From assembly GCF_030384885.1 (NCBI RefSeq), contig NZ_CP128613.1: a stretch of 64,000 nt of DNA; one strand, written 5' to 3'. Position numbers and translations under genes: made by a program. A model generated the notes under the pieces. It ran no database searches, was not told where the DNA came from, and saw only the letters and a program-made list of their open reading frames with translations. Shown piece by piece: positions 3,917-30,539 of this stretch; the first letter of the stretch is position 1, and every line of letters begins with the position of its first letter. The stretch comes from Escherichia coli (GTDB lineage: Bacteria; Pseudomonadota; Gammaproteobacteria; Enterobacterales; Enterobacteriaceae).

Positions 3917-4774
3917 ATGTTGTACCTGACGAAAATACGCAATGCAGAAAGTGAATTTACCGAGAACGAGCAAAAAATAGCTGACTTTCTGCAGGCTAAA
4001 GTGAGTGAGCTGAAATCCGTCTCTTCGCGCAAGATGGCGAAACAGCTCGGCATCAGCCAGTCGAGTATTGTGAAGTTTGCCCAAAAGCTCGGCGCGCAAG
4101 GATTTACTGAATTGCGTATGGCGTTAATTGGCGAATACAGTGCCAGCCGGGAGAAAACGAATGCCACGGCGCTGCACTTGCACAGTTCGATTACCAGTGA
4201 CGATTCGCTGGAAGTGATTGCCCGTAAACTGAATCGCGAAAAAGAGCTGGCACTGGAGCAAACCTGCGCCTTACTCGATTACGCGCGGCTGCAAAAAATC
4301 ATTGAGGTCATCAGTAAAGCGCCGTTTATCCAGATAACAGGCCTGGGCGGGTCGGCGCTGGTGGGGCGCGATCTTTCATTCAAACTGATGAAAATTGGTT
4401 ATCGCGTGGCCTGTGAAGCCGACACGCACGTACAAGCTACCGTTTCCCAGGCGTTGAAAAAAGGTGATGTACAAATCGCTATCTCTTACAGCGGCAGTAA
4501 AAAAGAGATTTTGCTATGCGCCGAGGCAGCGCGAAAGCAGGGGGCAACGGTGATTGCCATTACTTCACTGACTGACTCTCCGCTGCGGCGGTTGGCACAT
4601 TTCACCCTCGATACCGTTTCTGGTGAAACCGAATGGCGTAGCTCGTCGATGTCCACCCGCACGGCACAAAATTCGGTTACCGATTTACTGTTTGTTGGGC
4701 TGGTACAACTTAATGATGTCGAGTCATTGAAAATGATTGAGCGCAGCAGTGAGCTAACGCAACGCCTGAAATGA
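3917..4774 (+). CDS. murR: RpiR/SIS-family transcriptional repressor of murQP
   Basis: Track ORF 3662..4774 trimmed to ATG at 3917 ([14 protein letters not shown]...), giving 285 aa; divergent from murQ. Confidence 0.8.
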
Positions 4775-7847: not shown

Positions 7848-8722
7848 TGGCGGAAGTGACACAGTTGAAGCGTTATGACGCGCGCCCGATTAACTGGGGC
7901 AAATGGTTTTTGATTGGCACCGGAATGCTGGTTTCGGCGTTCATCCTGCTGGTGCCGATGATTTACATTTTCGTGCAGGCATTCAGCAAAGGGCTGATGC
8001 CGGTTTTACAGAATCTGGCTGATCCGGACATGCTACATGCCATCTGGCTAACGGTGATGATTGCGCTGATTGCCCTCCCGGTAAACCTGGTGTTCGGGAT
8101 TCTGCTGGCCTGGCTGGTGACGCGCTTTAACTTCCCCGGACGCCAGTTGCTGCTGACGCTGCTGGACATTCCGTTTGCTGTGTCGCCGGTGGTTGCCGGT
8201 CTGGTCTATCTGCTTTTCTACGGCTCTAACGGCCCGCTCGGCGGCTGGCTGGATGAACATAATCTGCAAATTATGTTCTCCTGGCCGGGAATGGTGCTGG
8301 TCACCATCTTCGTGACCTGTCCGTTTGTGGTGCGCGAGCTGGTGCCAGTGATGTTAAGCCAGGGCAGCCAGGAAGACGAAGCGGCGATTTTGCTTGGCGC
8401 GTCTGGCTGGCAGATGTTCCGGCGCGTCACGCTGCCGAACATCCGCTGGGCGCTGCTTTATGGCGTGGTGCTGACCAACGCCCGCGCGATTGGCGAGTTT
8501 GGTGCGGTGTCGGTGGTTTCCGGCTCGATTCGCGGCGAAACACTTTCGCTGCCGTTACAGATTGAATTGCTGGAGCAGGACTACAACACCGTCGGCTCCT
8601 TTACCGCCGCGGCGCTGTTGACGCTGATGGCGATTATCACCCTGTTTTTAAAGAGTATGTTGCAGTGGCGCCTGGAGAATCAGGAAAAACGCGCGCAACA
8701 GGAGGAACATCATGAGCATTGA
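7847..8722 (+). CDS. cysW: Sulfate/thiosulfate ABC transporter permease
   Basis: 291-aa membrane ORF; start overlaps cysU stop. Confidence 0.9.
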
Positions 8723-16342: not shown

Positions 16343-17104
16343 TTACCGCCACATCGCGTGTTTATCGCGATAGCAATCGACCCACATCGCCGTCGCGCCA
16401 CAAACGGCAACGGGCATAATGAACAGATTAAGCAGCGGGATCATCGTAAACAGGCTGGTTAAAGCACCAAACTGCATATTGGTGATTTTGCGTGTGCGCA
16501 GGGCGGTGCGCATCTCTTTAAACGGCACTTTGTGGTTATCGAAGGGGTAATCGCAATACTGGATGGCTAACATCCAGGCGCTAAACAGGAACCACAGTAC
16601 CGGTGCGACGGTTTGCCCAATGCCAGGGATGAAGTAAAGAATTAGCAATACAATTGCGCGCGGCAGATACCAGGCAAATTTTTGCCATTCGCGTTTCATG
16701 ATTCGCGGCACATCTTTCATGATACCGAAAATTCCGGTATCTGGCGGTGTAGCGCCAGTCAGTCTTGCTTCCAGTTGTTCAGCCAATAAACCGTTGAACG
16801 GAGCAGCAATCCAGTTAGCAATCGTTGAGAAGAAATAGCCAAACACTAACAGCACAGAGATGACAGCCAGGGGCCACAACAGATAGCTCAGCCATTGTAA
16901 CCAGTCCGGAACATAACTCATGAGAGTCGGGATCCAGACATCGAGTTGCGTAAAGAGCCACCAGAATGCGCCCCCCATCAACAAAATATTGACCAGCAGC
17001 GGTAAAATAACGAAACGCCGAATCCCAGGTTGCGAGACGAGCTTCCAGCCTTGCGCAAAATAGTAAAAACCGCTGCGTGGGGCAGATGTGAATGATGAAA
17101 CCAT
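16343..17104 (-). CDS. cysZ: Sulfate transporter CysZ
   Basis: 253-aa polytopic membrane ORF recognised as CysZ; divergent from zipA. Confidence 0.9.
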
Positions 17105-17333
17105 AATCAGGATGAGCTCCTTTTGACCAATCCCAGGAAAATTCTGCGTATTTTACCGGGTAATTGCGCAATGGACAGTTAGGATATGTTCGAAAAAACA
17201 GCAAAAAGCACGATTTCATCTATCTTTGTGCTGTGAAAGTTAATAGTGCACTTGCACTTGAGGTAATCGGCAAATACTCTTAGTGAGTAAATGTTTGCCG
17301 TGGTGGCAAGGTGTTAGAACAACAGAGAATATA

Positions 17334-18332
17334 ATGATGCAGGATTTGCGTCTGATATTAATCATTGTTGGCGCGATCGCCATAATCGCTTTACTGGTAC
17401 ATGGTTTCTGGACCAGCCGTAAAGAACGATCTTCTATGTTCCGCGATCGGCCATTAAAACGAATGAAGTCAAAACGTGACGACGATTCTTATGACGAGGA
17501 TGTCGAAGATGATGAGGGCGTTGGTGAGGTTCGTGTTCACCGCGTGAATCATGCCCCGGCTAACGCCCAGGAGCATGAGGCTGCTCGTCCGTCGCCGCAA
17601 CACCAGTACCAACCGCCTTATGCGTCTGCGCAGCCGCGTCAACCGGTCCAGCAGCCGCCTGAAGCGCAGGTACCGCCGCAACATGCTCCGCGTCCAACGC
17701 AGCCGGTGCAGCAACCCGTGCAGCAGCCTGCCTATCAGCCTCAGCCTGAACAGCCGTTGCAGCAGCCAGTTTCGCCACAGGTCGCGTCAGCGCCGCAGCC
17801 AGTGCATTCAGCGCCGCAACCGGCACAACAGGCTTTCCAGCCTGCAGAACCCGTAGCGGCACCACAGCCTGAGCCTGTCGCGGAACCGACTCCAGTTGTG
17901 GATAAGCCGAAGCGCAAAGAAGCAGTGATCATCATGAACGTCGCGGCGCATCACGGTAGCGAGCTAAACGGTGAACTGCTTCTTAACAGCATTCAACAAG
18001 CGGGCTTCATTTTTGGCGATATGAATATTTACCATCGTCATCTTAGCCCGGATGGCAGCGGCCCGGCGTTATTCAGCCTGGCGAATATGGTGAAACCGGG
18101 AACCTTCGATCCTGAAATGAAGGATTTCACTACTCCGGGTGTCACTATCTTTATGCAGGTACCGTCTTACGGTGACGAGCTGCAGAACTTTAAGCTGATG
18201 CTGCAATCTGCGCAGCATATTGCCGATGAAGTGGGCGGTGTAGTGCTTGACGATCAGCGCCGTATGATGACTCCGCAGAAATTGCGCGAGTACCAGGACA
18301 TCATCCGCGAAGTCAAAGACGCCAACGCCTGA
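17334..18332 (+). CDS. zipA: Cell division protein ZipA (FtsZ-interacting)
   Basis: Track ORF trimmed to [18 protein letters not shown]...; N-terminal TM helix, long P/Q-rich linker, C-terminal FtsZ-binding domain; 332 aa here. Confidence 0.9.
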
Positions 18333-18363
18333 TACACTTAAGGCAAATTAACTCCTCTTCGAA

Positions 18364-18385
18364 CCCCCGCTTGTCGGGGGTTTTT
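18364..18385 (+). terminator. Rho-independent terminator-like hairpin after zipA
   Basis: cccccgcttgtcggggg followed by ttttt. Confidence 0.5.
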
Positions 18386-18393
18386 AGCATTGA

Positions 18394-20418
<2,025 letters not shown>

Positions 20419-27057: not shown

Positions 27058-27114
27058 GCAGATAGCAAAAAAGCGCCTTTAGGGCGCTTTTTTACATTGG
27101 TGGGTCGTGCAGGA
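27058..27114. repeat. 57-bp direct repeat copy 1 (terminator hairpin plus 17-nt 3' end of tRNA-Lys)
   Basis: Identical to 27214..27270; contains aaaaaagcgcctttagggcgctttttt and tggtgggtcgtgcagga. Confidence 0.8.
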
Positions 27115-27213
27115 TGACTCGCTTCGCTCGCCCTTCGGGCCGTCGCCGCGAGCGGCTCCGTTGTTTCGCTGCGCTCAACTCGAACCTGCTGCAGGTTCGA
27201 ATCTTTGAGTATC

Positions 27214-27270
27214 GCAGATAGCAAAAAAGCGCCTTTAGGGCGCTTTTTTACATTGGTGGGTCGTGCAGGA
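27214..27270. repeat. 57-bp direct repeat copy 2 (overlaps the genuine lysV 3' end and its terminator)
   Basis: Exact 57/57 identity with 27058..27114 by direct comparison. Confidence 0.8.
27223..27250 (-). terminator. Rho-independent terminator of the valU-valX-valY-lysV operon
   Basis: On minus strand gcgcc-ctaaa-ggcgc hairpin followed by tttttt immediately after lysV CCA. Confidence 0.7.
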
Positions 27271-27329
27271 TTCGAACCTGCGACCAATTGATTAAAAGTC
27301 AACTGCTCTACCAACTGAGCTAACGACCC
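27254..27329 (-). tRNA. lysV: tRNA-Lys (UUU)
   Basis: Reverse complement reads GGGTCGTTAGCTCAGTTGGTAGAGCAGTTGACTTTTAATCAATTGGTCGCAGGTTCGAATCCTGCACGACCCACCA. Confidence 0.9.
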
Positions 27330-27333
27330 GAAG

Positions 27334-27409
27334 TGGTGGGTGATGACGGGATCGAACCGCCGACCCCCTCCTTGTAAGGGAGGTGCTCTCCCAGCTGAGC
27401 TAATCACCC
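27334..27409 (-). tRNA. valY: tRNA-Val (UAC)
   Basis: Reverse complement reads GGGTGATTAGCTCAGCTGGGAGAGCACCTCCCTTACAAGGAGGGGGTCGGCGGTTCGATCCCGTCATCACCCACCA; 4 nt from lysV. Confidence 0.9.
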
Positions 27410-27455
27410 ACTTCGGTACTTCACATTTTTACAAGAAATCTAGCTGGCGAGAAAG

Positions 27456-27531
27456 TGGTGGGTGATGACGGGATCGAACCGCCGACCCCCTCCTTGTAAG
27501 GGAGGTGCTCTCCCAGCTGAGCTAATCACCC
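27456..27531 (-). tRNA. valX: tRNA-Val (UAC)
   Basis: Second identical tRNA-Val copy. Confidence 0.9.
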
Positions 27532-27574
27532 ACTTCTCAATTTCTTGCTACACGGCGGAGACTACATAAGTAGT

Positions 27575-27650
27575 TGGTGGGTGATGACGGGATCGAACCG
27601 CCGACCCCCTCCTTGTAAGGGAGGTGCTCTCCCAGCTGAGCTAATCACCC
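27575..27650 (-). tRNA. valU: tRNA-Val (UAC)
   Basis: Third identical tRNA-Val copy, first gene of the operon. Confidence 0.9.
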
Positions 27651-30348: not shown

Positions 30349-30424
<76 letters not shown>

Positions 30425-30463
30425 AATTTTGCACCCAGCAAATTTGGTACGTAAACGACTCGT

Positions 30464-30539
<76 letters not shown>

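Follow-up and report, generated by a model that had tools for sequence, protein, structure and literature searches.

A zipA gene of Escherichia coli with one of two major natural length alleles of its proline/glutamine-rich linker

The zipA gene in a 64,000-nucleotide stretch of Escherichia coli DNA (contig NZ_CP128613.1 of RefSeq assembly GCF_030384885.1, hereafter the window) encodes a ZipA protein of 332 residues, four more than that of K-12, and the whole of this difference is a single 12-bp unit within the linker. Its anatomy, the frequencies of its alleles in the population, the repeats bounding the linker junctions and a composition control for the overlapping reading frames were all observed directly. 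We are highly confident that this is an ordinary, essential division gene whose disordered P/Q tether comes in two major natural length alleles, one of which is present here; repeat slippage is the inferred cause of the length difference, which is presumably neutral.

The gene spans 999 bp with a single stop codon, at its end, as read from the ORF list and translation, and lies in a plus-strand open frame of positions 17283-18332, within which annotation places the start codon, an ATG, at 17334 (MMQDLRL...). RefSeq places zipA of the near-identical strain 2013C-4282 at the same coordinates. The identification as zipA, made in an earlier sequence-only reading of this DNA, was confirmed by a ZipA_C match with E = 3e-46, by 98% identity to K-12 ZipA and by gene order, as cysZ (16343-17104, minus strand) and ligA (18403-20418, plus strand) flank zipA in the same cysZ-zipA-ligA arrangement in the window and in K-12 MG1655. 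The gene and its protein domains are located as follows.

17334-18332, plus strand: zipA coding sequence, 332 aa plus stop (ORF and translation; RefSeq annotation in strain 2013C-4282; 98% identity to K-12 ZipA; full-length match to PDB 9iue)
17352-17417, plus strand: N-terminal transmembrane helix, aa 7-28 (stretch identical to K-12; limits from PMC6904479)
17418-17588, plus strand: charged domain, aa 29-85, rich in R, D and E (limits from PMC6904479)
17589-17900, plus strand: P/Q-rich disordered linker, aa 86-189, 104 residues versus 100 in K-12 (composition; domain limits)
17925-18296, plus strand: ZipA_C FtsZ-binding domain, aa 198-321 (Pfam PF04354, E = 3.2e-46)

All of the ZipA-defining features that sequence can test are present. 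A 20-residue hydrophobic stretch is followed by an R/K/D/E-rich segment, as in the anchor and charged region of ZipA, and the PF04354 match scores 156.8 bits against a cutoff of 23. The PDB entries 1F46, 1F47 and 1F7W match residues 189-332 of the window protein at ~1e-90, and 9iue (328 aa) matches it end to end. Since the ZipA_C domain is 100% identical to that of K-12, the protein would be expected to bind the FtsZ C-terminal peptide and to be essential for division.

The window protein corresponds to WP_001353054.1, and its gene has an identical copy in one of 5,426 complete genomes, that of strain 2013C-4282, the next best match being 99.4% identical. Over window positions 1-50000, the 2013C-4282 chromosome (NZ_CP027579.1, from position 4502) shows the same gene coordinates and eight single-base mismatches, at 8075, 10896, 28777, 40029, 42779, 43870, 47031 and 49162. 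Relative to nine other alleles, the window zipA carries nine private substitutions, six of which cluster within 52 bp (17879-17930) where the linker meets the FtsZ-binding domain and yield A186T and M189V; this cluster may represent a short recombination patch from a divergent lineage. Downstream, the zipA-ligA spacer contains a G+C-rich hairpin at ~18361-18386 (ACCCCCG-CUUGU-CGGGGGU) followed by five U, which looks like an intrinsic terminator, and the whole 70-nt spacer has a predicted folding energy of -19.2 kcal/mol (z = -1.4). A consensus promoter/terminator scan returned no promoter-like site in 17050-18450, a result that is uninformative because the same scan missed this hairpin. Farther along the window are tRNA clusters at 27098-27650 (three Val, one Lys and an RtT sRNA annotation) and 30349-30539 (two Ala), which are ordinary and, according to the matching RefSeq record, flank gltX and yfeCD.

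In K-12, ZipA is divided into a transmembrane helix (aa 7-28), a charged domain (29-85), a P/Q domain (86-185) and a globular FtsZ-binding domain (186-328) (PMC6904479), and the same source, citing Ohashi et al. 2002, regards the P/Q domain as an unstructured flexible tether. The corresponding residues 86-189 of the window protein are 30% P, 25% Q, 13% A and 11% V, which identifies the low-complexity P/Q/A-rich tract picked out by the sequence-only reading as the known ZipA linker, its disorder being taken from the literature. The interval assigned to it there, 17560-17900 (aa 76-189), has precisely the same end as the P/Q tract, but starts some ten residues upstream of aa 86 (nt 17589). At the DNA level, the linker is 66% G+C and 14% T, compared with 50% G+C window-wide, and it lies outside the PDB domain structures, which begin at aa 189-194. 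Among ten aligned zipA alleles, 6.4% of linker sites were variable, versus 1.6% for the N-terminal and 3.5% for the C-terminal part; almost every amino-acid change fell inside or adjoining the linker, and it held every length difference. The earlier description of the linker as a run of repeats was right as to its low complexity but not as to a tandem array, since Tandem Repeats Finder (minimum score 30) reported none in zipA; the tract instead combines many short dispersed direct repeats with one imperfect two-copy 12-bp tandem, positioned as follows.

17706-17717, plus strand: 12-bp unit GTGCAGCAACCC (V125-Q-Q-P128), missing in K-12 (DNA alignments)
17718-17729, plus strand: second, retained copy of the unit, GTGCAGCAGCCT, with 10 of 12 bases the same as the first (DNA comparison)

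Alignment of the window gene with zipA of K-12 MG1655 (b2412, NP_416907.1; 987 bp, 328 aa) revealed that GTGCAGCAACCC accounts for the entire difference between 332 and 328 residues. This unit directly abuts its imperfect twin GTGCAGCAGCCT, the pair encoding ten residues where K-12 reads QPVQQP, and the 12-bp deletion of K-12 can slide across 8 bp of shared GTGCAGCA. The sequence-only reading had set 332 residues against 328 for K-12; lengths taken from both genes (999 versus 987 bp) agree with it and, with K-12 ZipA at 328 residues rather than the same length, the comparison is not refuted. The 332-aa form thus has four extra residues from a kept second 12-bp unit, an ordinary and presumably harmless variant. 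An assembly artefact was also considered as the cause of the 332-aa form and was ruled out, as thousands of independent complete genomes agree.

To place this allele in the species, zipA was searched in 5,426 complete E. coli genomes by whole-gene megablast and was present in 5,425. In an evenly spaced sample of the megablast ranking, 17 genes measured 999 bp, 22 measured 987 bp and a single one measured 888 bp. Class totals were taken from a gapped 92-bp blastn query centred on the 12-bp unit, which returned 2,378 records at identities of at least 90%, 3,047 at 80-90% and 67 with less than 80% coverage. In a 60-row sample of these, records of at least 96.7% identity spanned 91-92 bp without a gap and represent the 332-aa class, and records at 83.7-84.8% identity spanned 80 bp and represent the K-12 class, while the 67 low-coverage records suggest larger rearrangements. 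The 332-aa form therefore accounts for ~43% of the 5,426 complete genomes, the K-12 form for ~56% and larger linker deletions for ~1%. The variation in linker length across E. coli proposed by the sequence-only reading is borne out. Exact 28-mer junction queries independently matched 2,026 genomes for the insertion-type junction and 3,035 for the K-12-type, together covering 5,061 of 5,425; the gapped query was used for totals because nearby SNPs or other indels break the 28-base word. Among the zipA matches, two were on records labelled as plasmids and one genome had two copies; these, together with the one genome of 5,426 that lacked a match, probably reflect replicon mislabelling or assembly problems.

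Carriers of the 332-aa form include O157:H7, O127:H6, strain 042 and the ST95-named strain ST95-32, and carriers of the 328-aa form include K-12, O103 and O111; judged from these named strains, length class seems to go with lineage. A doubled QPVQQPQPVQQP or a close variant stands at the position of the unit in ZipA of E. albertii (331 aa), of E. marmotae (330 aa) and of a divergent Escherichia lineage (330 aa). Because these related species have two QPVQQ-like units, two units are probably the ancestral state, from which the K-12 form would have arisen by deletion of 12 bp.

These frequencies bear on whether the linker could be a contingency locus, a hypermutable simple-sequence tract that switches ZipA length often within populations. 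Many different indel alleles and at least one recurrent event would fit such a locus, but the two forms make up ~99% of the 5,426 genomes, and within each class the sequence at the junction is conserved: of the 2,026 genomes matching the 42-bp insertion-type junction, 2,001 do so at 99% identity or more. This argues for stable vertical inheritance. Moreover, Tandem Repeats Finder detected no array, the sole tandem being two imperfect copies with 10 of 12 bases identical, and every event was in-frame, with no on/off frameshifts. Neither a near-perfect multi-unit array in the window zipA nor frequent copy-number switching among the 5,426 genomes was found, and we regard a contingency locus as extremely improbable.

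Beyond the two major forms, a protein search and fetched alleles gave E. coli ZipA lengths of 295-375 aa in public data, comprising 295, 298, 300, 301, 303-305, 308-310, 314, 323, 328, 330, 332, 333 and 335 aa and longer forms of 348, 349, 351, 354, 355 and 375 aa, so that the P/Q tract ranges from ~67 to 147 residues across the series. In 17 of 20 variants read, the change lay within the P/Q tract, and in one it lay just upstream (aa 80); the remaining two (335 and 323 aa) differed by small indels of the charged domain, to which the 323-aa protein adds a linker deletion. The FtsZ-binding domain was constant in length in all 20, and the longer forms were internal duplications of 17-47 residues. 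A 348-aa ZipA from an ENA metagenome differs from the other variants in having a 20-residue hydrophobic insertion (RISLFFFVVLFSPPS...) right after the transmembrane helix, likely an assembly or frameshift artefact.

To examine how such lengths arise, eight alleles were each compared with their closest full-length reference at the DNA level; protein-only modelling gave arbitrary placements and underestimated microhomology. The sample is small and consists of alleles that were easy to retrieve, and its eight comparisons amount to about six distinct junctions, because the 308-aa allele is counted twice and its left repeat copy is common to the 295-aa allele. The junctions were as follows.

K-12, 328 aa: 12-bp deletion at repeat GTGCAGCA (8 bp)
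309 aa: 69-bp deletion at repeat CGCAGCCG (8 bp)
308 aa (two loci): 60- or 72-bp deletion at repeat CAGCAGCC (8 bp)
EM10-18-28, 295 aa: 111-bp deletion at repeat CAGCAGCC (8 bp)
O103 ML775, 300 aa: 84-bp deletion at repeat CGCAGCC (7 bp)
349 aa: 51-bp duplication at repeat CAGCCG (6 bp)
GMM076, 328 aa: independent 12-bp deletion at repeat GCA (3 bp)

Junction microhomologies in the eight comparisons were 8, 7, 3, 8, 8, 8, 6 and 8 bp, so that seven of them sit on in-frame direct repeats of 6-8 bp. By comparison, homology of at least 6 bp occurs in only 0.66% of the distinct in-frame deletion placements of 12-111 bp within the linker, and the association with repeats is therefore far beyond chance. 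The exception is GMM076, which reached 328 aa through a different, independent 12-bp deletion with only 3 bp of microhomology, against the slippage pattern. The observed deletions also coincide with repeat pairs listed from the window sequence itself, at spacings of 12, 69, 72, 96 and 111 bp, including those below.

17629-17636, plus strand: left copy of CGCAGCCG, with the right copy at 17698-17705, 69 bp away; between them they delimit the 23-aa deletion in the 309-aa allele
17649-17656, plus strand: left copy of CAGCAGCC, with further copies at a distance of 72 bp (17721-17728) and of 111 bp (17760-17767); the resulting pairs bound the deletions of the 308-aa and 295-aa alleles
17698-17704, plus strand: CGCAGCC, with its partner at 17794-17800, 96 bp away; the pair bounds the deletion of the 300-aa allele of O103 ML775

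This junction anatomy suggests that replication slippage is at work. With CCG/CCA (Pro), CAG/CAA (Gln) and GCN (Ala) codons used so heavily, short direct repeats at in-frame spacing would abound in the linker, and between these repeats replication slippage or RecA-independent short-homology recombination may sometimes delete or duplicate the intervening codons. Because zipA is essential, only in-frame products would survive, and a change of length would be tolerated because the linker, an unstructured tether from the membrane anchor to the FtsZ-binding domain, acts as a spacer and has no fold to disrupt. By polymer scaling, four residues would contribute a contour of ~1.5 nm out of ~38 nm and alter the random-coil end-to-end distance by ~2%, and therefore no phenotype is expected, suggesting that the change in linker length is neutral.

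Alternatively, the length of the tether might be adaptively tuned to envelope geometry or to the spacing between the Z ring and the membrane, in which case the 332/328 split and the 309-aa allele would be functional. That the length classes appear to follow lineage is compatible with such tuning, although neutral inheritance predicts the same association, which does not exclude selection either. Similarly, the site of the unit changed independently in GMM076 and in E. albertii, which has its own pair of 331- and 321-aa alleles, set apart by an indel of ten residues at this QPVQQ site and indicating a hotspot shared across species, but repeat-driven mutational bias explains the recurrence. The 309-aa allele, with its 23-residue linker deletion, is abundant, being listed in 1,861 blocks of a public assembly collection and having its junction in 24 complete genomes, most of which come from clinical isolates of human origin (SaT040, for example); the allele seems to be the mark of a successful clone, and its abundance could stem from clonal success or from some advantage. 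Against tuning, the ~2% shift estimated for a chain of ~100 unstructured residues is slight, and alleles from 295 to 375 aa all come from viable isolates, arguing for wide tolerance. We therefore consider adaptive tuning very unlikely, and see only a small chance that some lengths in the natural series, for example 309 aa, spread because Z-ring-to-membrane spacing or the dynamics of the divisome depend subtly on the length of the tether. Neutral length alleles produced by slippage between repeats are the reading we prefer.

The composition of the linker has a further consequence, in that its T-poor DNA nearly removes stop codons from four of the five other reading frames, leading to long spurious ORFs over the linker. 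Those found in the window are listed below.

17551-17856, plus strand: spurious 101-aa ORF in the +1 frame of the linker (no Pfam family; shuffle mean 102.6 open codons versus 102 observed)
17560-17865, minus strand: spurious antisense 101-aa ORF within a 122-codon stop-free stretch (no Pfam family; shuffle mean 110 codons, 69% reach the observed length)
17469-17714, minus strand: spurious antisense 81-aa ORF within a 105-codon stop-free stretch (no Pfam family; shuffle mean 94 codons, 18% reach the observed length)
17741-17935, minus strand: spurious antisense 64-aa ORF (ORF list; no Pfam family)
17808-17954, minus strand: 48-aa ORF (ORF list)

Some of these ORFs could in principle encode real overlapping or antisense proteins, for example those at 17551-17856 on the plus strand and 17560-17865 on the minus strand, as they run to ~100 codons, possess start codons and are open in all 13 alleles examined. 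To obtain a null expectation for the open stretches, the order of the 104 linker codons was shuffled 2,000 times, with the results below.

Frame 1: observed stop-free stretch 102 codons, shuffle mean 103, 55% of shuffles reach the observed length
Frame 2: observed stop-free stretch 105 codons, shuffle mean 94, 18% of shuffles reach the observed length
Frame 3: observed stop-free stretch 122 codons, shuffle mean 110, 69% of shuffles reach the observed length

Shuffled codons thus gave equally long stretches in 18-69% of cases, and no ORF beyond the expectation from composition was found. Stop codons occurred at 0-2 per 100 codons in the three shuffled frames of the linker, as against 7-10 per 100 codons over the three stop-rich alternative frames of the C-terminal domain. 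None of the four other-frame ORFs tested matched a Pfam family, and RefSeq annotates none of the linker's other-frame ORFs. Across the 13 alleles their lengths simply track the indels of zipA, and their translations are low-complexity products rich in Arg/Leu/Ser or in Ala. The earlier claim that the repeat-rich linker generates spurious ORFs on both strands is thereby supported by the matching shuffles and the lack of Pfam families, and real overlapping genes here have next to no probability.

The P/Q tether and both alleles (332 and 328 aa) are already known, being annotated as RefSeq proteins in thousands of genomes, and the polymorphism of the linker is visible in any alignment; our literature search found no paper devoted to length polymorphism of the ZipA linker. 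Added here are the exact 12-bp unit, the ~43% and ~56% frequencies, the polarity, the range of 295-375 aa and the repeat-bound junctions. The finding on zipA length is correct but ordinary and carries little biological weight. Its practical implications are that K-12, as a shortened form of minority ancestry, does not make 328 aa the species norm; that the 12-bp indel offers a handy marker, which seems to track lineage; that ORF callers will yield false ORFs of ~100 codons on both strands across the linker; and that the natural series of 295-375 aa could serve as ready material for tests of tether length and FtsZ anchoring.

Compared with its nearest known relatives, the window protein shares with K-12 ZipA 98% identity, the same four-part architecture and an identical transmembrane helix, charged region and ZipA_C domain, but has the four additional linker residues VQQP (nt 17706-17717) and the linker substitutions H120R, A122T, P152S, A186T and M189V (window numbering). 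With the RefSeq 332-aa alleles (for example WP_001299866.1 and WP_001305210.1; O157:H7, 042, O127:H6 and numerous further strains), it shares the length class and the duplicated unit, whereas its exact sequence is rare and carries the nine private substitutions. Slipped-strand, or short-homology, deletion and duplication between direct repeats is a classical mutational mechanism in E. coli, and the ends of the linker indels likewise coincide with direct repeats of 6-8 bp, the likeness here lying in junction anatomy. Disordered linkers of the divisome, such as the C-terminal linker of FtsZ, vary in length and sequence between species; the ZipA linker is similarly of low complexity and tolerant of length change, and it spaces a folded domain from the point of attachment to a membrane or partner, but it belongs to a different protein, and its variation occurs within one species and is traced to specific short direct repeats.
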